A stretch of DNA of 62,277 bases from Candidatus Nealsonbacteria bacterium (GCA_043813805.1 JBDRKR010000025.1:1-62277), one strand, 5' to 3'; positions 4,010 to 40,426 are shown, counted from the first letter of the stretch. The notes: generated from the letters alone by a model not told the origin. Numbers and translations: made by a program.

Positions 4010-4288
4010 TTATTTGAGAATTGATTTCACTTTAATATAGTTATCTTTAGTTTCCGGCGCCAATCCCAATAAGTTTCCAGCACCTTTTTCGGCCTCATCT
4101 TTTCTAAAGACGTTCTTTATGGATAAAGGATGCGAAGTCTCTTTTGTTTCGGAAACATCCACCTTTTTTAATTTTTCTATGTAATCTAAAATTGCCGAGA
4201 GATCCTTTCCATACTTTTTAAGCTCTTTCTTAGCTAAACCAAGCCTCGCAAGCTTAGCGATATGTTGTACTTCTTTTTGAGTTATCAT
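4010..4288 (-). CDS. gatC: Glu/Asp-tRNA amidotransferase subunit C
   Basis: The MITQKEVQHIAKLARL start is typical of GatC. Start placed at Met9 of ORF 4010-4312. Confidence 0.85.
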   Translation of the reverse strand: MITQKEVQHIAKLARLGLAKKELKKYGKDLSAILDYIEKLKKVDVSETKETSHPLSIKNVFRKDEAEKGAGNLLGLAPETKDNYIKVKSILK

Positions 4289-4349
4289 ATAAACATATAA
4301 GCATTTAAACAATTTGTTCAGATGCTTAAATGTTAAAATGTTAAAATGA

Positions 4350-5402
4350 TTATTTGGGCGGTTCCAAATATTCGGTTTCAGTCAAAACCTCTCTTAATTC
4401 ATCGAGGTTTTCTAACACCAGGCCCGCGCCTCGGGCTACGGCCGTCACCGGATCTTCAACGATGCGGGTGGGAATTTTTGTTTCTTTGGTGATCAAAATA
4501 TCGATACCGTTAAGCAGGCTGCCGCCGCCCACGAGCGATATGCCGTTTCTCATCACATCCGATAAAAGCTCGGGCGGCGTTTCTTCCACCGCAGTTTTGA
4601 TGGTATTGACGATTTGCTTGATTGACTTTGACATGGCCTGGGCAATGCTGTTTTCGGAAACTAAAATTTCTTCCGGCAAACCCGTCACTAAGTTTCTCCC
4701 CCTCATCGGCATTTCCTTTTTTCCTTTCATGGGAAAGGCGCAACCAATCCCGATTTTAATTTCCTCAGCGGTCCTCTCTCCGATGAGAAGCTTGTATTCC
4801 TCTTGCGCGAACTGAATAATATCTTCATTAAGCTTGTCTCCGGCGATTCTCAGGCTTTTGGCTAAAACAATCCCTCCCAAAGAAATGACCACCACCTGAG
4901 TCGTGCCGCCGCCGATATCAACCACAAAGTTTCCTCCCGCTTCCTGAACGGCTAATCTCGCCCCAATGGCAGCCGCCATCGGCTGCTCAATCAGATAGAC
5001 TTCGCTCGCCCCTGCCGATAATCCCGCATCCCTGACTGATTTTTTTTCAACCTCCGTCACTTCGCAAGGCACTCCGATGATAACGCGAGGCCTGGGTTTG
5101 AAAAAGAATTTTCTTTGCTGAACTTTTTCAATAAAATAACGCAGCATCTGCTCGGTTACCTCAAAGTCGGAAATCACGCCGTTTACCAAAGGACGCGTAG
5201 CCACAATATGGGCCGGGGTTCTCCCGACCATCTTTTTAGCCTCATCTCCGATGGCTAAAACCTGTCCGGTTTTTTGATTGATGGCCACGACCGAAGGTTC
5301 AAAAATAACAATTCCCCGCCCTCTTAAATAAACGAGGGTTGTGGCGGTCCCCAAATCAATGGCAATATCCTGGAAAAAATGCGAAAAAAATTTATTAAAC
5401 AT
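4350..5402 (-). CDS. mreB: rod-shape/actin-like protein MreB
   Basis: 350 aa with actin-fold motifs DLGTATT and DIGGGTT. Confidence 0.9.
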   Translation of the reverse strand: MFNKFFSHFFQDIAIDLGTATTLVYLRGRGIVIFEPSVVAINQKTGQVLAIGDEAKKMVGRTPAHIVATRPLVNGVISDFEVTEQMLRYFIEKVQQRKFFFKPRPRVIIGVPCEVTEVEKKSVRDAGLSAGASEVYLIEQPMAAAIGARLAVQEAGGNFVVDIGGGTTQVVVISLGGIVLAKSLRIAGDKLNEDIIQFAQEEYKLLIGERTAEEIKIGIGCAFPMKGKKEMPMRGRNLVTGLPEEILVSENSIAQAMSKSIKQIVNTIKTAVEETPPELLSDVMRNGISLVGGGSLLNGIDILITKETKIPTRIVEDPVTAVARGAGLVLENLDELREVLTETEYLEPPK

Positions 5403-5407
5403 GATTA

Positions 5408-6691
5408 TTATCGCGATGTTGAACGATGTTGAAATCCGATTTCAACAAGTTTGTTGAAATCCGATTTCAACGAAACCAGTTTTGTTTTCTGCTCGTTACG
5501 TTTCTTAATTTCAATTGAATCTTGCTTCAGAGTCTTTTCGCTGACAACCATCCTTAAGGGAATACCTAATAAATCAGCTTCGGCAAATTTCTCACCGGCC
5601 GCTTTGCCCTCTCTGTCATCGTACAATACTTCAATGCCCTTCTTTTGTAAATCATCATAAATTTTTTGCGCGGTTTGTTTTACTTCAGAATTTTCGCCGA
5701 GCTGAATCAAGTGGATCTGAAACGGCGCCACGGCCTCAGGCCATAAAATTCCCCTTTCATCGTGGAAAATTTCGGCGATAGTGCCCATCAGGCGCCCCAA
5801 ACCGATCCCATAAGAACCCATAATAACGGGGTTATCTTTGCCGTTTTTATCTTTGAAAGTCAGCCCCAAAGCTGAAGAATATTTTGTCCCCAAGGGAAAA
5901 ATATTGCCTATTTCTATTGCCTTTTTTTCTTCCAGGTCAGCTTTTTTTAATCCTAATTCGTCTAAAACCTCGTCTTGATAAACCTCCTTGTTGATTGCTA
6001 TCTTCTTTTTTTGATCAATGTATATTATATCTTCACCGGCCTCGGAAATTGCCTGAAACTCGTCGCTGAATTTGCTGAAAGACCCGCCGCTGGCAAAAGT
6101 GCGGAAGGTATAATTTTTAAGCCCCACCCTGGAAAAAATCTTTAAATAAGCGGCTGCGCATTTTTCATAAAAATCCTTGAATTCTTCTTCTGTTCTGGAA
6201 AAAGAATAAAGATCTTTCATTAGAAACTCCCTTACCCTCATCAAACCGCTTTTAGCTCTGAGCTCGTTCCTAAACTTCGTCTGAAACTGATAAACATAGC
6301 GGGGTAAATCTCTCCAAGAATTCACATACTCTTTCATCAAATTGGCCAGGGGCTCCTCGTGAGTGTTGGCGATGCCTGCATCCGCGCCATTTGCGAGTTT
6401 TGTCTTAAACCAATTGTCCACCACTTTGTCATCCCACCTGCCGCTTTTCTTCCAAATCTCGGGATCTTGCAAAGAGGTCAGCAGAACCTGCTCTCCGCCC
6501 AGCTCGTCCATTTCCTCTTTAATGATTTGCTTTATTTTTTCTATCACTCTTAATCCCAGGGGCAAAAAAGCAAAAACTCCGGCCATTTCTTTATGAATAA
6601 AACCGGCTCGAATCAAAAGTTTGGCGTTCACCGAAACTTCTTCTTTGGGAGCTTCTTTTAAAAGCTTGGTAAAAAGTTGCGATTGCTTCAT
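5408..6691 (-). CDS. proS: prolyl-tRNA synthetase (short, no insertion/editing domain)
   Basis: 427 aa. Class II motifs FRNELRAKSGLMRVREF and a C-terminal anticodon-binding region. The last ~20 codons run through palindromic repeats. Confidence 0.9.
   Translation of the reverse strand: MKQSQLFTKLLKEAPKEEVSVNAKLLIRAGFIHKEMAGVFAFLPLGLRVIEKIKQIIKEEMDELGGEQVLLTSLQDPEIWKKSGRWDDKVVDNWFKTKLANGADAGIANTHEEPLANLMKEYVNSWRDLPRYVYQFQTKFRNELRAKSGLMRVREFLMKDLYSFSRTEEEFKDFYEKCAAAYLKIFSRVGLKNYTFRTFASGGSFSKFSDEFQAISEAGEDIIYIDQKKKIAINKEVYQDEVLDELGLKKADLEEKKAIEIGNIFPLGTKYSSALGLTFKDKNGKDNPVIMGSYGIGLGRLMGTIAEIFHDERGILWPEAVAPFQIHLIQLGENSEVKQTAQKIYDDLQKKGIEVLYDDREGKAAGEKFAEADLLGIPLRMVVSEKTLKQDSIEIKKRNEQKTKLVSLKSDFNKLVEIGFQHRSTSR
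5414..5471. repeat. short repeats at the proS 3' end
   Basis: cgatgttgaa occurs twice in tandem (5414-5433). The 19-nt palindrome gttgaaatccgatttcaac occurs at 5428-5446 and 5453-5471. Confidence 0.8.
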
Positions 6692-11651: not shown

Positions 11652-12308
11652 CTAAGGAGCTAATGCTTTCTTTCTTACTCCTGCGATATGGAATTCAGCG
11701 CTTTGTCCGGTAGCTTTTTCAAATTGCCGATAAAGAGCGATGGCTTCCAGATATTCGTCCATCGCCTCCCGATTCCGGCCCAACTCTTTCAGGGCGTCAG
11801 CTTTATTCTGTTTGGCATGACCGGCTGTCCGATAGTCGCCTTTGAGCAAAGCCTTTTCGTAGACCTTCTCGCAGACCTCCACGCTCCCCTTAAAATCTTT
11901 CGCCCAGCGAAAGAGAATGCTTCGGGTGTTCCAAACCGATGGTTCCTCCGGGAATTCCTTGATGGCTTTATCGCTGATTCTCCAGGCCTCTTCCTGCTCT
12001 TCCAAAATCCAAAGCGACAAAGGTAGGCCATTTAAAATCGAAATTTTCTTCTTACTGTCAGAAGTTCGATCCAGGGCTTGCTTAAAAGCCTCTTTCGACA
12101 TTTGGAGACCGATCTGCTTATCATGAAGACCCTTCGTGCCGATATAATACCAATTCCATCCTCTCAACCGACAAGCCTCGGCAATCTCTTCGTCGGTGGT
12201 TAAGCTACTTTCATTAAGATCGATGAGAGAATTCGAATCCCGCCATTTCCCCTCATCGTACAGTTTTTGAGCTTCCGCTAAGACCTTTCCAATATCTACC
12301 GTTGCCAT
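11652..12308 (-). CDS. hypothetical helical-repeat (TPR-like) protein
   Basis: 218 aa with repeated amphipathic helix pairs. SD GAGGAGG lies 7 nt upstream. Confidence 0.55.
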   Translation of the reverse strand: MATVDIGKVLAEAQKLYDEGKWRDSNSLIDLNESSLTTDEEIAEACRLRGWNWYYIGTKGLHDKQIGLQMSKEAFKQALDRTSDSKKKISILNGLPLSLWILEEQEEAWRISDKAIKEFPEEPSVWNTRSILFRWAKDFKGSVEVCEKVYEKALLKGDYRTAGHAKQNKADALKELGRNREAMDEYLEAIALYRQFEKATGQSAEFHIAGVRKKALAP

Positions 12309-12628: not shown

Positions 12629-13309
12629 TTATTCTAATTTAAAACCTTTAAGAGATTCGATATTTTTAGCATAATAACTCAGCCAATTTGTAAAAAATTC
12701 TCTGTATTCTTCCGAATTCTTAAAAAATCTAGCCATAAAGTCTTTATCTATCAGTGATGGGAAATTTTTAATCCCCCACCAATCTAAGTGGCTAGACCAA
12801 CGATATTGTTCTAAGAATCTCAAGGCATTTTGAATTTCTAAATTGGTTAAACCTTTTTCTTTCCAGTCGGGCTTCCATAAATCTAAAGGATTGGAGTGGA
12901 TATAACAAATTAACTGAATAGCTTGGGTGTCGTCCATTACTTGTACCTTTTTATATTTCCCCTGAAACAACGTTCCGTTCCTTTTATATTTAACATTAAA
13001 AAACTTAGCAAATCCGCCTCCGAATTTTTTATGAAAATTCGCGAGACCATTATCTGGAATAGGAGATGAAAATAAATGATAATGATTAGGCATCAAGCAC
13101 CAAACAAATAAATTCAACAGATTTTCTCTGGTCTTATTTAAATTAATCGACGTCAGACGTCCATTAATTCGCTGTTTGAGATTAAATACAGCATTACTGT
13201 CATTAAACTCATAAAGATCGTGAACACCACGAAAATAATCTCCTTCTTCTATAAATATTTTTCTTTTGTCTGTTCCTCGATTATAACTGTGATAAAACAA
13301 GCTTTCCAT
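12629..13309 (-). CDS. REP-associated tyrosine transposase (IS200-like Y1, HUH)
   Basis: 226 aa with HUH motif MPNHYHLF and catalytic Tyr region CYIHSNP. The -10 TGGTATAAT lies 8 nt upstream of the ATG. Confidence 0.8.
   Translation of the reverse strand: MESLFYHSYNRGTDKRKIFIEEGDYFRGVHDLYEFNDSNAVFNLKQRINGRLTSINLNKTRENLLNLFVWCLMPNHYHLFSSPIPDNGLANFHKKFGGGFAKFFNVKYKRNGTLFQGKYKKVQVMDDTQAIQLICYIHSNPLDLWKPDWKEKGLTNLEIQNALRFLEQYRWSSHLDWWGIKNFPSLIDKDFMARFFKNSEEYREFFTNWLSYYAKNIESLKGFKLE
13145..13166. repeat. REP1 copy inside the transposase CDS
   Basis: aatcgacgtcagacgtccatta, translated in frame as INGRLTSI. Confidence 0.75.
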
Positions 13310-21723: not shown

Positions 21724-21816
21724 AGCTATCTTAAATACTATCAAAAACCGTCCAAAAACAAAAGACCCATGCTTTTTGTAAAACATGGATCTTCTTCGAC
21801 GAGGAAACTCGAGGAC

Positions 21817-22059
21817 CTAGGAAACCGTGATCTCGGTAACCACCGCTTTCCCGAAGGTCTCTCCGACGATCGTCTCGCCCTTCCGAATCACGAACCTGCT
21901 GTCCAGGAAATGTAGCCGATCACCACGATAAACCTCCCTCTTTACCGGCTTTCCGTCAGCTCCCTTGGTCCGGCGCATGACGACCCCGCTCGGATCGACC
22001 GCGATCTTGAAAATGTTACCCAGTTCAGTCCTTGCTTTAATTGAAATGTTCATTACCAT
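21817..22059 (-). CDS. hypothetical small protein (78-80 aa)
   Basis: SD AAGGAG upstream, GC-rich sequence, no family recognised. Confidence 0.5.
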   Translation of the reverse strand: MVMNISIKARTELGNIFKIAVDPSGVVMRRTKGADGKPVKREVYRGDRLHFLDSRFVIRKGETIVGETFGKAVVTEITVS

Positions 22060-22247
22060 CTCCTTAAATTTATTTCTTCATAACGCCGAGCTGGCTACAA
22101 TCTATTTGATTAACACTATCGTCTAATCTACGTAAAAATACATATTTATTGTAACCACTTCGCCGCTATGAAGCGTAAAAAGAACTTCTTCCTTCCGCAA
22201 ATTATTAATCCCGAGTCACACCGAGGGACTGCTAATCTCTGGAAGGA

Positions 22248-22273
22248 GGAGGTTGTATAATGGCACAACCTCC
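22248..22273. other. 9-bp hairpin GGAGGTTGT/ACAACCTCC
   Basis: On the plus strand it sequesters an SD and the ATG at 22260, and it is followed by TTTTCG. Confidence 0.5.
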
Positions 22274-22454
22274 TTTTCGTCGCCTACTTGCCTGCTTTAT
22301 AGGCGATGGCTTCATCCTTCTTCAGGATGACAACGTTGTTAATGACATAATACGCCATTACTGCGCCTCCTTTTTATTCTTTCTACCTGCATTATACCAT
22401 ACCATCTCAAATTTGTCAATGGTTTCTGCAACCCTTCAGCGTGGTTCAGAATAA
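22260..22454 (+). CDS. possible small hydrophobic protein (64 aa)
   Basis: SD GGAGGAGG lies 7 nt upstream. Overlaps the antisense 24-aa ORF. Confidence 0.25.
   Translation: MAQPPFRRLLACFIGDGFILLQDDNVVNDIIRHYCASFLFFLPALYHTISNLSMVSATLQRGSE
22284..22358 (-). CDS. possible 24-aa peptide MAYYVINNVVILKKDEAIAYKAGK
   Basis: SD AAGGAGG lies 7 nt upstream of the ATG. Confidence 0.25.
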   Translation of the reverse strand: MAYYVINNVVILKKDEAIAYKAGK

Positions 22455-22485
22455 ACAAAAAGGGAGGGCTTATAACAGCTCTCCC
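22451..22485 (-). terminator. rho-independent terminator
   Basis: Hairpin GGGAGAGC-N8-GCCCTCCC followed by TTTTTGTTTATT on the minus strand. Confidence 0.65.
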
Positions 22486-22496
22486 TTCAAACTTAA

Positions 22497-23705
22497 TTAG
22501 AGTACAACGTGAGAAAGGAAAAAATGGCATCGCGACATGGCCATATTTCTCCTCTTCATAATGTGCTGCCATATCGAGGCGGCATCTTTCGTCTGCAATT
22601 TCAACGGATCTAGCGCCAGAATCGAAACAATCATTCTGCCCGGCAGAATAAATGGCTCTATGTGACGAATAATCTCCGAAGAGACGACGGGTCGAAGTTC
22701 AACAGTCCTGCCCACAGACGACTCCGCTCTTTGTTTCAAAAACCACAGCCCGGTCTGCAGATCAACGCTACCCAGTAAAAAAAGAGTATTGCCGTCAACT
22801 GCATCACCGGTGATAAAACGGTCATCGGGTAACGCGATTTTCTCCGGAGCGAAAAATAAGCTTACCACGCGCATACTGCCCAGCTCTTTAGAAATCTGGT
22901 CAAAAATCATTCGATACCTCTCTGAGGCAGAATCGTTAAGAACGGCTGTTTCCTGCAACATCGGGGCTCGACAGCTAGCGGCTCTCGGGAACCCCAATTC
23001 GCATGCCGCCACGTCAAAATTCCATCGTATCAGCGGAGCACGCCAGCCCGAAATTTTAGCGCGCTCAATCAATCGGCCGATTGTCTCCGTATCGAGGAAG
23101 TTGCTTCTTATCCCTCCCCGTGCATCGCCTAAAGCTATTTTTCCGAACGAATTTTTGGCTGCCCGGTCGTAAAGGACTTTTGCTTTATCCAGGCCATTTT
23201 GGGTCGGCACATCCGAGATAGGAACAAAAGAAAGACCCAAAGAAATAACAGTAAGAATATTCTTATCGATTTGATCGAAAGCAATCCTTATAGCTCGACC
23301 GACCAAATAATCTTGGGCCCACCGGCTAAAACTATTTTCTCCTGCTGCTTCCTCTTCCGCCCTCCTGAGTTTTTTCTCCAATTCCTCTTTCTGCGATATT
23401 AGGGCTCTTTCGCCCGGCTGAAGATAAACACTCCATTGCCGAAATTCGGCAATGGCCCGGTCGAAAACCTCCCGTTTCTTCAGAAGATCAAGCACTGCTG
23501 AAAATCGTCTGGCCGCCTCCGTCTCCTTCTTAATTTTGTCAGGATGGACACGAGCGGCCAGACCACGGGCAAATTGCTCACATTGGGCGTAAAGCTCGTC
23601 ATCGCTCAACCCCAATTGCAGAATAGCCGGAGAAAGGCCGATAAGTTCGAGAGGGTTCGGCTCTTTGGTAATTCCACCCAATTTGTCGCTGAACGAATCA
23701 CTCAC
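22497..23705 (-). CDS. orphan J-domain protein with an unknown C-terminal domain
   Basis: 402 aa with a GTG start. HPD motif context is LAARVHPDKIKKETEAARRFSAVLDLL. No DnaJ Zn-finger or CTD. Confidence 0.65.
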   Translation of the reverse strand: MSDSFSDKLGGITKEPNPLELIGLSPAILQLGLSDDELYAQCEQFARGLAARVHPDKIKKETEAARRFSAVLDLLKKREVFDRAIAEFRQWSVYLQPGERALISQKEELEKKLRRAEEEAAGENSFSRWAQDYLVGRAIRIAFDQIDKNILTVISLGLSFVPISDVPTQNGLDKAKVLYDRAAKNSFGKIALGDARGGIRSNFLDTETIGRLIERAKISGWRAPLIRWNFDVAACELGFPRAASCRAPMLQETAVLNDSASERYRMIFDQISKELGSMRVVSLFFAPEKIALPDDRFITGDAVDGNTLFLLGSVDLQTGLWFLKQRAESSVGRTVELRPVVSSEIIRHIEPFILPGRMIVSILALDPLKLQTKDAASIWQHIMKRRNMAMSRCHFFLSHVVL

Positions 23706-24315
23706 TCGCCTCTACCTCCCCTTCAATGATTTTATACCCCTCTGGATTAGGAAAGGATTTAAGCAGGATAATGACGTCACGACTCGTCAAAATATTAGGT
23801 ATCCCCCTTTTTCCTTCGCCCGCGCAATGCCGAGCAATCTCTCTTAAAAATATGCCCGCTGCCGCAGTTTCATTGATGCGCAAACCGAGCCGCTCAACTA
23901 TCAGGAAAGATTCGCCAATCACCAACTCAACGACGCTTTCGACATCAATTCCGTACGCCAGAGCAAGCTGAGCCGCGGTTTTCCAGCTGATACTGACATC
24001 GTTGTCCTTACAAATGTCAAAAACCGTGCAAACTCGCTCCAGTTTTCGTCCCACTTCGTCTACCCTGTCGCGAGGGATATTCTGATTGCTAATCAGCACT
24101 CTCAAGACCATATTAAACGTTTCGGGCCTCATCCCCAGCGGCCAATCTTCAGACACGACCAGATACATTCTTTGCTCAAGAACCGCCGGTAAACTTCTCT
24201 GGATACGGGCGAGGACCGTTTCCGGCCGCCAACCGAAACGATTAGCCAAAGAGCCGACTGTCGGATTTGCGGGAGTTAATTGTTGCTTGTCGACAATGAC
24301 AATTATGTTTCCCAT
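23698..24315 (-). CDS. hypothetical protein with HTH-like segments
   Basis: 205 aa. SD AGGAGG lies 10 nt upstream. Has an 8-nt overlap with the downstream gene. Confidence 0.55.
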   Translation of the reverse strand: MGNIIVIVDKQQLTPANPTVGSLANRFGWRPETVLARIQRSLPAVLEQRMYLVVSEDWPLGMRPETFNMVLRVLISNQNIPRDRVDEVGRKLERVCTVFDICKDNDVSISWKTAAQLALAYGIDVESVVELVIGESFLIVERLGLRINETAAAGIFLREIARHCAGEGKRGIPNILTSRDVIILLKSFPNPEGYKIIEGEVEASE

Positions 24316-24379
24316 TACGCTTATTCCTCCTATTTCCTTTCTGTTTTATTTTCAAAGGACCGTCAAATTACCTAAAAAG

Positions 24380-24407
24380 ATTATACTACATTTTGTCGTT
24401 TAGTCAA
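24380..24407 (-). promoter_or_regulatory. promoter TTGACT-16-TATAAT
   Basis: -35 at 24402-24407 and -10 at 24380-24385, read on the minus strand. Confidence 0.55.
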
Positions 24408-24427
24408 GGATTAAACCTTCCCAAGCC

Positions 24428-39589: not shown

Positions 39590-40426
39590 TTATTCTGATT
39601 TTTTAAGTTTCTTTGTTTCTGTTTTCCCTAAATGCTTTAATCCGCCCTTCAACTCCCTGATATGTTTTTCGGTAGGCAAATTTTCTGGTAGCTCACCGCC
39701 AATATCTTTTATTGTTTGCCGAACCTTGCCACCAACCATAAAGTGCGTATTCGTAGCGGCGTTCTCGTCTCTAGTACCATCCTTTTTAAGCTTTTCATCG
39801 GTTTGAGTAATACGAAAAAGATTAGCGGCCAATTCGGTAGAACCAGCCCTGTCTAATAATTCTCTTTTCTTAATACCTTTTTTCTTTTCTACGTCAGCGA
39901 CAGGCATTCCATAGAGACCCTTATATCCAGCGTCATTAAATAATCCGAAATTGCTTACTCCCGCTTGCCGGGCGGTCTTAAAAAGTCTCTTATTGTGGTC
40001 TACGACTTCCTCACGGATAAATAATCGCTTTGCCGCATCCGGTAATTGCTCAAAAACCTCTTGCTTCCTTGTCTGTATGGCAAAATAAGTCTGAGCAAGA
40101 GCTATTTCGGACTTATTAGGGTCTCCATTTTGGGCTATTAAATAACAAGCATACCTATCCAATTTATAGTCCTTAACCTCTCTGACTGAGTTAGAACCAA
40201 TCTTGACCATTTTGCTGATTTTAGCAAAATGGTTATCCACATCTTGACCGCTCTTTAGACACGCCCGCGCAGCTTTACCGACAACTTCTTCAAAATTCCT
40301 CCACTGCGAATAACCCAATAAAAACATAAGCTCACGTGCCATCCAATACTCAACCCCATTTTTATCAATTTTTTTGATATCCTCAAATTTTCTATGAGGA
40401 GCAGATGGTATCATCTCGTCTGTCAT
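39590..40426 (-). CDS. dinD: DNA-damage-inducible protein D-like (Bro-N/DinD family)
   Basis: 278 aa. Long colinear similarity to E. coli DinD as I recall it: KIGSNSVREVKDYKLDRYACYLIAQNGDP, QTYFAIQTRKQE, GSTELAANLFR.TQT.EKLK. Confidence 0.75.
   Translation of the reverse strand: MTDEMIPSAPHRKFEDIKKIDKNGVEYWMARELMFLLGYSQWRNFEEVVGKAARACLKSGQDVDNHFAKISKMVKIGSNSVREVKDYKLDRYACYLIAQNGDPNKSEIALAQTYFAIQTRKQEVFEQLPDAAKRLFIREEVVDHNKRLFKTARQAGVSNFGLFNDAGYKGLYGMPVADVEKKKGIKKRELLDRAGSTELAANLFRITQTDEKLKKDGTRDENAATNTHFMVGGKVRQTIKDIGGELPENLPTEKHIRELKGGLKHLGKTETKKLKKSE

Follow-up and report, generated by a model that had tools for sequence, protein, structure and literature searches.

The stretch of DNA analysed here (the window) is the 62,277-nt contig JBDRKR010000025.1 of Candidatus Nealsonbacteria bacterium (GCA_043813805.1), an uncultured Parcubacteria (CPR) bacterium in which a two-gene cassette, designated A-B, lies between the housekeeping genes alaS and mnmA. 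The segment under study spans positions 21817-24427, and its open reading frames (ORFs) lie on the minus strand at the coordinates stated at first pass. The cassette comprises the following features.

24380-24407, minus strand: promoter P1 of the A-B operon, TTGACT-16-TATAAT
24316-24379, minus strand: operon 5' UTR, with the Shine-Dalgarno (SD) sequence AGGAGG about 10 nt before the ATG
23698-24315, minus strand: gene A, 205 aa
22497-23705, minus strand: gene B, 402 aa, GTG start, class-C J-domain protein
22451-22485, minus strand: intrinsic terminator closing A-B, GGGAGAGCT-loop-AGCCCTCCC then TTTTTGTTT

The operon and the alaS leader

The description of A-B as self-contained is borne out: the unit has a promoter and a terminator of its own, and its two genes overlap by 8 nt at the stop and start codons. 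The promoter (24407-24380) agrees with the consensus at 11 of 12 positions and is kept in the relative L001, and a sigma-70-like promoter lies upstream of A-B at every A-B locus examined. The terminator hairpin and its T-run (22485-22451) are readable directly and likewise kept in L001; the stem contains one mismatch and was not called by a simple scanner, and terminators are found 3' of B at other A-B loci as well. The GTG start of B overlaps the stop of A by 8 nt (GTGAGTGA), which supports the proposed translational coupling of B to A. This start is backed by an N-terminal alignment with L001, which reads ATGAGTAG there and has the same 8-nt overlap, and the codons of the gene A tail, encoding an acidic, disordered C-terminus, are the source of the gene B SD.

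Between the cassette and alaS, whose start we correct to 21723 (MTSQQL, as in relatives) rather than 21786, lie a second promoter, a micro-ORF, several RNA structures and a small gene:

22391-22419, minus strand: promoter P2, TTGACA-17-TATAAT with a TG extension, matching at 12/12 positions; part of the alaS leader, not of the cassette
22284-22358, minus strand: micro-ORF, 24 aa (MAYYVINNVVILKKDEAIAYKAGK), SD AAAGGAGG
22191-22273, minus strand: two hairpins, fold z = -3.65
22273-22248, minus strand: first hairpin, GGAGGTTGT...ACAACCTCC
22246-22191, minus strand: conserved 'CCTTCC hairpin', CCTTCCAGAGATTA...GGAAGG
22077-22172, minus strand: M6 structured element, about 100 nt, a long closing stem sequestering an AUG plus two inner hairpins
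21817-22059, minus strand: ORF80, small beta-rich protein gene, SD AAGGAG

The small-ORF/hairpin locus had been counted as part of the cassette, but it belongs to a conserved leader upstream of alaS that is common to relatives without A-B. Homologs of P2 occur in L001, L013, L014, L018 and L039, directly after mnmA in L014, and the micro-ORF, also found in relatives lacking A-B, is conserved as a peptide, with synonymous codon changes, in L001, L013/L039 and L034. The CCTTCC hairpin recurs in seven related loci (RNAalifold, 24 pairs, five with compensatory changes) and M6 in L013, L014, L016, L018, L034 and L039 (35 pairs, five compensatory); M6 is present in a single copy in the window, and no extra copies of the RNA motifs were found elsewhere in it. 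Rfam gave no credible match over the region, only chance sRNA/miRNA and terminator-like partial matches. A T-box leader for alaS was considered, but no T-box stood among the Rfam matches listed. An integron attC identity was rejected for the hairpins, which end in CCTTCC/GGAAGG, presumably not attC R''/R' core sites, and are accompanied by no integrase. The 80-aa beta-rich ORF is a real gene, but its likely start is 22053, giving 78 aa. A homolog at the same position in L016 has 79 aa and 71% identity (dN/dS 0.16). ORF80 has a GC content of 0.53 (GC3 0.67) and no family in Pfam, PHROGs, PADLOC or NCBIfam. It is variable cargo of the mnmA-alaS spacer.

The spacer, the A-B family and the question of origin

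The mnmA-alaS junction was compared across 27 loci, obtained by querying with the neighbouring 418-aa protein. The idea that the junction is otherwise empty holds for distant relatives (L028, 50 nt; L029, 100 nt; L025, 490 nt) but not for the close relatives L013, where the spacer contains an IS110/Tas-like gene, and L014 and L016, where it contains other ORFs, with a serine recombinase adjacent in L016. A-B occupies the spacer in the window and in one close relative, L001, and its presence is incongruent with flanking-gene similarity. The spacer is a variable hotspot, and at this one fixed site A-B is present in some relatives and absent from others, as is expected of a genomic island; its behaviour as an accessory insertion is supported.

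Word-indexed homolog searches returned one relative for B, none for A and three for a profile of alignment A1, and related-locus searches with B, wider alignments or the B+L001 pair retrieved nothing from genome, metagenome and viral collections; the family was found by exhaustive phmmer search. An exact-match search with infA yielded only a 2.8-kb contig. The pair travels together: in nine of nine contexts examined the B homolog is immediately preceded by an A-like gene, on the same strand and usually abutting or overlapping it, with a promoter and a terminator of its own at each locus. All nine contexts are chromosomal, in housekeeping neighbourhoods, with no recombinase or phage gene adjoining A-B. 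The three relatives with source names all derive from Parcubacteria-group genomes, the window holds no A or B paralogs elsewhere, and no published work on the pair came to light. Between the window and L001, dN/dS is 0.24 for A and 0.22 for B, indicating purifying selection, and dS is 1.2-1.4 for A/B against 1.2-1.9 for the neighbours. Because divergence approximates that of the neighbours and selection has been purifying, the insertion is old and maintained.

The segment had been described as a GC-richer island, and at 47.2% GC it does rank at the top of 120 windows of 2.6 kb (mean 43.2%, sd 1.6), but the rise is modest; the two 60-nt lines quoted in support were given their right values (51.7% and 26.7% GC) and are unrepresentative. 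The tetranucleotide distance of the segment (z = 1.5-1.6) ranks 12-14 of 120, and A and B have a GC content of 0.49 compared with 0.436 +/- 0.037 for all genes (+1.4 sd). The contrast in SD usage is confirmed. All four ORFs of the segment have a strong SD (A, AGGAGG; B, GGAGG; micro-ORF, AAAGGAGG; ORF80, AAGGAG), whereas of the window's 61 other genes just three are preceded by an SD core of at least 5 nt. The SD sites are no sign of foreignness peculiar to this locus, since several Parcubacteria loci show the same split, A/B homologs and other small hypothetical genes being SD-led there and housekeeping genes lacking an SD. An anti-SD motif has been detected in only 48% of Parcubacteria (PMC9297842), and the 16S rRNA 3' end was not found in any fetched DNA. 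Strong SD sites in a genome with SD-less core genes suggest a separate translation mode for this class of accessory genes.

These data bear on the first-pass proposal of a laterally acquired phage or plasmid module for host takeover, replication or defence, which would hijack DnaK like Rki of phage RB43 or a toxin-antitoxin/abortive-infection pair. Several features are in keeping with such an origin: the IS110/Tas-like gene in the hotspot and the serine recombinase adjoining it, the patchy distribution of A-B among close relatives, the compact layout of two overlapping genes with a promoter and a terminator of their own, a GC content higher than elsewhere on the contig, the SD-led genes set among core genes of another kind, and the short TTGAC repeats that bound the cassette and double as -35 boxes. 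However, A and B have no homologs in PHROGs, PADLOC (no match for A, B or ORF80 at E <= 1), INPHARED, PLSDB or IMG/VR, a search that took in 50,697 phage records and 72,556 plasmids; the nine contexts are chromosomal and without adjoining recombinases or phage genes, divergence from L001 equals that of the flanks under purifying selection, and the source-named relatives are all Parcubacteria-group genomes. Absence from the phage and plasmid sets is weak evidence, because CPR phages and plasmids are poorly sampled, and on balance we consider a phage or plasmid origin unlikely. A more speculative scenario, to which we give no greater credence, would make A-B a mobile cassette devoid of recombinase, one that moves between Parcubacteria through homologous recombination at conserved hotspots between genes and redirects the host's DnaK to a part in conflict (defence, addiction or host-cell interaction); its two folds would be ones not yet represented among solved structures, and its perfect SD sites would single out a distinct set of translated accessory genes, in lineages that start core-gene translation without SD and about half of which are without the anti-SD motif.

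Predicted structures of A and B

The AlphaFold2 model of A (pLDDT 83) is all-alpha, with 11 helices and the disordered acidic C-terminal tail. The A family is alignable across nine sequences and has no counterpart in Pfam, PHROGs, PADLOC or NCBIfam. The first-pass annotation had read A as a DNA-binding protein with two helix-turn-helix (HTH) stretches, a reading that could place A as a regulator of the operon or of other genes, itself remodelled or activated by B and DnaK in the manner of P1 RepA or sigma-32. Residues 18-41 do form a helix-turn-helix-shaped helix pair in the model, and single family members give weak Pfam matches to HHH_RecD2 (0.0011) and HTH_38 (0.045). Furthermore, the 5' UTR is near-identical over its first ~45 nt between the window and L001 despite saturated synonymous sites in the coding regions (dS 1.2-1.4), from which we infer a possible regulatory role, perhaps as an operator. 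Set against this, the second proposed HTH (residues 113-129) lies inside one continuous helix (111-134), no significant HTH family was found in Pfam or NCBIfam, Foldseek against the PDB returned neither a match nor a DNA-binding fold for A (best E 1.5), and the conserved UTR is seen in just the two genomes, being unrecognisable upstream of A at the other loci. The HTH assignment is therefore not upheld, and a regulatory function for A seems decidedly improbable.

Gene B encodes three regions, all on the minus strand.

23436-23663, minus strand: J-domain, approximately residues 15-90; HPD codons 23546-23538
23292-23474, minus strand: single long helix, residues 78-138, about 60 residues, from AlphaFold2 secondary structure
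22500-23258, minus strand: C-terminal alpha/beta domain, residues 150-402, about 250 aa, pLDDT mostly >90

The HPD/J-domain signature noticed at first pass proves real by motif conservation and by fold and profile comparisons. HPD occupies residues 54-56, and all 29 aligned sequences share H54 and D56. Among the roughly 150 relatives listed, 118 have HPD, 27 (~18%) have HED, HSD or HTD, variants that may weaken DnaK stimulation, and five have no motif, so that HPD or H-x-D is present in 145. In the AlphaFold2 model (pLDDT 89.9), helices II and III form an antiparallel hairpin (helix 35-52, loop, helix 63-75), and the top PDB matches in Foldseek are 2lo1, 2och, 6d6x and 5nro_B, the last of which is DnaJ bound to DnaK (probability 0.75-0.98, target TM 0.49-0.61, E-values 0.16 or higher); at a probability of at least 0.6, J-domains were the only credible matches for B in PDB and BFVD. 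Nearly all matches of a B profile to the PDB are J-domains (E = 0.003-0.5, with Sis1 at 0.003), hhalign against approximate sequences of six canonical J-domains gave 94%, and one relative is titled 'J domain-containing protein' in UniRef. Pfam DnaJ (PF00226) scored below its curated threshold in B (14.6 versus 27.8 bits, E = 0.037), matches of any kind to this model were obtained in 4 of 29 family members, and helix II has a less basic character than that of DnaJ. The domain is, in sum, genuine but divergent. A degenerate 'J-like' domain doing no Hsp70 work, its HPD a relic within a structural or scaffolding pair, would accommodate the sub-threshold Pfam score, the replaced Pro and missing motifs, and an Ala in place of the conserved helix II aromatic (in comparison with an approximate E. 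coli DnaJ sequence), but is highly improbable, as the His and Asp needed to stimulate DnaK never vary within the aligned set and are present in most relatives despite 20-30% identity elsewhere, which argues for retained function.

The designation of B as an orphan class-C J-domain protein, devoid of Gly/Phe region, zinc finger and DnaJ C-terminal domain, also stands: B has no Pfam match to DnaJ_C or DnaJ_CXXCXGXG, and in the model the J-domain is followed by the long helix and then by the alpha/beta domain. The helix is charged and varies in length among homologs, with ~40-aa insertions in P0009 and P0015, and is a putative stalk or coiled coil as modelled. The C-terminal domain, recognisable in ~17 full-length relatives, has no credible Foldseek match in PDB or BFVD and no Pfam or NCBIfam family. 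Enzymatic motifs were sought in it and rejected, E350 and H399 being kept in close relatives and not in distant ones, for which reason a binding role seems likelier than catalysis.

A J-protein and its proposed partner

J-domain proteins decide where Hsp70 acts. In our preferred interpretation, to which we assign a probability of roughly 0.55, A-B is a lineage-specific accessory operon of Parcubacteria encoding a class-C J-domain co-chaperone (B) and a dedicated partner (A) that direct DnaK to a client. Translational coupling would deliver A and B in fixed proportion for assembly into a predicted complex, the J-domain of B would dock on the host DnaK (Hsp70) and trigger ATP hydrolysis, and the 60-residue helix would form a stalk or mediate dimerisation. 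The choice of client or site for DnaK could then fall to the novel C-terminal domain of B, acting with or through A; A may itself be a client or modulator, by analogy with CbpA-CbpM or with the activation of RepA by DnaJ/DnaK. No dnaK occurs on the 62-kb contig or at any fetched locus, so the Hsp70 partner is assumed, DnaK being presumed present in the host from general knowledge of CPR genomes.

The known systems that come closest differ from A-B in informative ways. The class C (type III) proteins DjlA, DjlB and DjlC of E. coli resemble B in having an N-terminal or isolated HPD J-domain, in lacking the Gly/Phe region, zinc finger and DnaJ-type C-terminal domains, and in that the remainder of the protein is presumed to confer client or site specificity. 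B has no membrane anchor, unlike DjlA, and departs from the Djl proteins in joining a cytosolic J-domain to a 60-residue helix and a 250-aa alpha/beta domain that matches no solved structure, in the constant presence of an upstream partner gene, and in having source-named relatives exclusively of the Parcubacteria group. In CbpA-CbpM of E. coli, as in A-B, adjacent and coupled genes specify a J-protein together with a helical partner of small size, and A could modulate B as CbpM does CbpA. However, CbpA belongs to the class-B paralogs of DnaJ and has the DnaJ C-terminal domains, and CbpM, MerR-like and ~100 aa long, is encoded downstream of it, whereas A has 205 aa, is encoded upstream, is not MerR-like and shows no similarity in sequence or fold. 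DafA, of the Thermus thermophilus DnaJ-DafA system, is similarly a lineage-specific small protein and a stoichiometric J-protein partner, but at ~8 kDa, and encoded in the dnaK operon, it contrasts with the much larger A and with the location of A-B apart from any dnaK seen. Finally, Rki, an ORFan J-domain protein of phage RB43, combines an orphan J-domain with an uncharacterised C-terminal part and has been proposed to steer the DnaK of its host towards one particular target (PMC3486835). Unlike B, Rki is encoded by a phage, lacks a partner gene dedicated to it and acts on sigma-32; the two showed no detectable relation in sequence, and A and B are without phage homologs.

The A-B locus thus presents a conserved and apparently obligatory pair of J-protein and partner, so far seen only in Parcubacteria-group (CPR) genomes, in which A and the C-terminal domain of B have confident AlphaFold2 models that match no solved structure and no curated family. 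The locus is also a clean test case for the split between SD-led accessory genes and core genes without SD, and for an intergenic hotspot in which several RNA structures, conserved but unclassified, precede alaS. The discovery of a new class-C J-protein is usually a sign of a further process that depends on Hsp70. Since the genomes of CPR bacteria are tiny and these organisms rely on other cells, an accessory chaperone module that is maintained in them probably meets a lineage-specific need.

The mnmA-alaS segment and its composition

The window reads like a contig from the Parcubacteria (Candidate Phyla Radiation). Its GC content is about 43%, the minus strand carries nearly all of its genes, and a ribosomal-protein superoperon is broken up by other housekeeping genes. 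The segment at 21817-24413 holds a two-gene operon (A and B, together the A-B cassette) with its promoter P1, and a leader before alaS with the promoter P2. In 5' to 3' order the features are:

25513-24464, minus: mnmA
between mnmA and P1, minus: hairpin after mnmA
24407-24380, minus: promoter P1, TTGACT-16-TATAAT
24379-24316, minus: 5' UTR of the A-B operon, Shine-Dalgarno (SD) AGGAGG
24315-23698, minus: gene A, 205 aa
23705-22497, minus: gene B, 402 aa, GTG start within GTGAGTGA, 8-nt overlap with gene A
22485-22451, minus: intrinsic terminator after gene B
22419-22391, minus: promoter P2, perfect TTGACA-17-TATAAT
22358-22284, minus: micro-ORF, 24 aa
22273-22191, minus: two hairpins
22172-22077, minus: M6, structured element of about 100 nt
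22059 or 22053 to 21817, minus: ORF80
21795-21760, minus: terminator-like hairpin before alaS
21723, minus: true start of alaS (MTSQQL)

The alaS start was set by homology; the mechanically called ORF begins 63 nt too early, at 21786. A TAAGAT -10-like box about 7 nt before the start suggests, by its closeness, that the alaS leader is very short or absent, and further core genes of the window may have similarly short or absent leaders.

The first-pass annotation described a GC-richer island. The two sequence lines it quoted do have the stated GC (51.7% and 26.7%) but are unrepresentative. The segment reaches 47.2%, the highest among 120 windows of 2.6 kb, whose mean is 43.2% (sd 1.6). In tetranucleotide usage it departs only modestly from the contig (z = 1.5-1.6, rank 12-14 of 120), and the GC of genes A and B (0.49) and of ORF80 (0.53) compares with 0.436 +/- 0.037 across 65 genes. 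Two other regions, an IS200-like Y1 transposase gene and a Bro-N domain protein (12629-13309 and 39590-40426, minus strand), deviate more in composition than the A-B segment; the transposase gene lies in a low-GC (0.32) stretch whose tetranucleotide usage ranks among the most deviant on the contig.

A divergent class C J-domain protein and its paired gene

Gene B matches Pfam DnaJ only weakly (E = 0.037, 14.6 bits; cut-off 27.8). Its AlphaFold2 model (pLDDT 89.9) comprises a helix (35-52), the HPD loop, a second helix (63-75), a long helix (78-138) and an alpha/beta domain (150-402). In Foldseek searches of the PDB, J-domains are the only matches of meaningful probability (2lo1, 2och, 6d6x and 5nro_B, the last being DnaJ bound to DnaK; probability 0.75-0.98, target TM-scores 0.49-0.61), and from PDB sequences the family profile retrieves almost nothing but J-domains (Sis1, E = 0.003). 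Alignment by hhalign with six canonical J-domain sequences entered by hand gave 94% probability. The best BFVD matches are mostly giant-virus and phage J-domain proteins, all at E >= 0.18. At E <= 0.001, an exhaustive phmmer search returned 149 relatives. Full length (385-468 aa) is reached by about 17 of them; most of the remainder, many of similar size, share residues ~15-120 only. One relative is named 'J domain-containing protein' in UniRef. Across a 29-sequence alignment the HPD motif never varies at H54 or D56, and among ~150 listed relatives of gene B the motif reads HPD in 118, HED, HSD or HTD in 27, and is missing from 5. Gene B thus encodes a divergent J-domain protein, and because the Gly/Phe region, the zinc finger and the DnaJ C-terminal domain are all missing, it belongs to class C. 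For its own C-terminal domain, neither Foldseek (PDB and BFVD) nor Pfam and NCBIfam gave a credible match. Within that domain, E350 and H399 are kept in close relatives and lost in distant ones of the 29-sequence alignment, which favours a binding role over catalysis.

Pfam, PHROGs, PADLOC and NCBIfam offer no family for gene A. Its model (pLDDT 83), for which nine homologs were used, consists of alpha helices and a disordered acidic tail, and Foldseek finds no PDB match for it (best E = 1.5). In several genomes the tail codons (GAG GAG G...) also provide gene B with its SD.

In all nine contexts compared (L001, L002, L003-5, L006/7, L008, the P0024 contig, L009, L010 and L011, all related loci or contigs), a same-strand gene of 183-225 aa abuts or overlaps the B homolog upstream, and the eight products with available sequence are 19-53% identical to gene A. 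At each of these loci the pair is preceded by a sigma-70-like promoter of its own and gene B is followed by a terminator. The neighbourhoods are mutually unrelated and of housekeeping character (aminoacyl-tRNA synthetases, ribosomal proteins, FtsZ/FtsA, DnaB, RecG, FtsH). Named gene B relatives are Parcubacteria metagenome-assembled genomes, and the named sources are Parcubacteria bacterium Gr01-1014_33, Candidatus Nealsonbacteria, GW2011_GWB1_43_6 and Candidatus Pacebacteria. On these comparisons the pair is conserved across Parcubacteria. A-B is a real, conserved and previously uncharacterised J-protein operon; our literature search turned up no publication describing such a J-protein from the CPR.

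An accessory cassette in a variable spacer

The cassette extends from P1 to the terminator, with TTGAC bounding both sides. The close relative L001, a contig from a JGI metagenome, shares the gene order (mnmA, A, B, micro-ORF, alaS), with 63% identity in gene B and ~54% in gene A. The promoter, gene overlap and terminator recognized in the first-pass annotation are all present in the window and kept in L001, as are the first ~45 nt of the UTR and P2. Between the window and L001, A and B show a dS of 1.2-1.4 and most flanking genes one of 1.2-1.9 (mnmA is saturated); dN/dS of A and B is 0.22-0.24. Because the divergence equals that of the flanks and dN/dS is this low, the insertion is old and maintained under purifying selection.

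A search with the neighbouring 418-aa protein yielded 27 further loci, among which spacer content differs. The junction is empty in L028 (50 nt), L029 (100 nt) and L025 (490 nt). In L014 the mnmA stop lies within the P2 -35 box (the 'unoccupied' state), followed by unrelated ORFs. The close relative L013 carries, at the A-B site, a 369-aa IS110-type gene flanked by CTCTTGACA (Transposase_20, 5e-7; NCBIfam TIGR-Tas RNA-guided endonuclease, 1e-15, below cut-off); in L013 (3676-4785) and L039 this gene occupies the exact site and precedes ~190 nt of hairpin-rich non-coding DNA. L016 has other ORFs and an ORF80 homolog, and a large serine recombinase (4052-5800; Resolvase, Recombinase and Zn_ribbon_recom) directly upstream of mnmA, its ORF running into mnmA; this is further evidence of a neighbourhood attracting mobile DNA. 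In L001 (9300-9310), and equivalently in L013, L014 and L016, the promoter that follows mnmA has the gene's stop codon TGA inside its -35 hexamer (TCTTGAC), and spacer inserts in relatives start exactly at that hexamer, whatever their content.

The flanks of the window are nearest to those of L013 (mnmA 76%, RNase H-like 93%) and L018 (alaS 89%), and those of L001 to L016 (mnmA 79%). Since all three nearest loci lack A-B, the pair is an accessory cassette in a recombination hotspot, with a history of either repeated loss or exchange between lineages. The proposed island is partly borne out, as an accessory cassette in a variable spacer, but as an old one that has diverged from L001 like its flanks.

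The small-ORF and hairpin locus, earlier grouped with the cassette, is separate and native: P2, the micro-ORF, the CCTTCC hairpin (CCTTCC...GGAAGG) and M6 recur before alaS both in relatives that have A-B and in those that lack it. At the protein level the micro-ORF (M[AP]YYV[IV]N...DA[IV]AYKA) is kept, and it shows synonymous changes; compensatory changes affect 5 of 24 predicted pairs in the hairpin and 5 of 35 in M6, whose long closing stem sequesters an AUG. This conserved mosaic of non-coding modules (22077-22419, minus strand; also in L001, L013, L014, L016, L018, L034 and L039) has no Rfam match and could be an unclassified alaS leader or regulator, or an sRNA locus. ORF80, 71% identical to its L016 homolog with dN/dS of 0.16, is a real gene and variable cargo of the spacer. 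At its position L001 has a 97-aa predicted membrane ORF (11759-12052; 62% GC in a 42% GC locus) with the SD AAGGAGG and two flanking copies of the CCTTCC hairpin.

Proposed function and two possible classes of translation initiation

We consider it somewhat better than even (roughly 0.55) that A-B encodes a class C co-chaperone system. The J-domain of gene B would recruit and activate DnaK, the long helix would act as a stalk or dimeriser, and the novel C-terminal domain, with co-translated A, would specify the client; gene A may itself be client or modulator. The analysis shows the fold, the conserved motif, the linkage of the two genes, purifying selection and accessory status; that A and B form a complex, that DnaK is used and what the client would be are inferred. 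A phage- or plasmid-derived conflict module, as first proposed, is unlikely: searches of PHROGs, PADLOC, phage records, plasmids and IMG/VR gave no homolog of A or B, and with no phage link and a modest compositional signal the cassette is less exotic than had been suggested. Slightly less probable still is that gene A is a DNA-binding regulator remodelled by gene B and DnaK. Of its two reported helix-turn-helix-like stretches, residues 23-39 do fall on two short helices with a turn, but residues 113-129 lie inside a continuous helix (111-134), which leaves DNA binding unsupported. Least probable is a degenerate J-like scaffold.

The contrast in SD usage between the segment and the other genes is real and strong: a 5-8 nt SD core at canonical spacing precedes 4/4 segment ORFs and 3/61 other genes of the window (those for TIM, with its SD at -13, for a TPR protein and for a DUF1385 protein). 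Gene B is led by AGGAGG or GGAGG in L001, L006, L008, L009 and L010 and by AGGAG in L002 and L011; for gene A, L001 and L006 have a strong SD and L009 the weaker GAGG. All Pfam-annotated housekeeping neighbours in the A-B loci checked (L001, L002, L006, L008-L011) lack an SD, and the remaining SD-bearing genes there are small hypothetical ORFs, so that the contrast is general across these A-B loci. Among Parcubacteria, only 48% had a detectable anti-SD motif in the study of Tsurumaki et al. (PMC9297842); the DNA analysed here held no 16S gene. The A-B pair draws its interest from two folds without a match, from its behaviour at a hotspot and from this SD contrast. The contrast points to two translation-initiation classes within one genome: core housekeeping genes, almost all lacking an SD, and A, B and small hypothetical ORFs led by a perfect AGGAGG.
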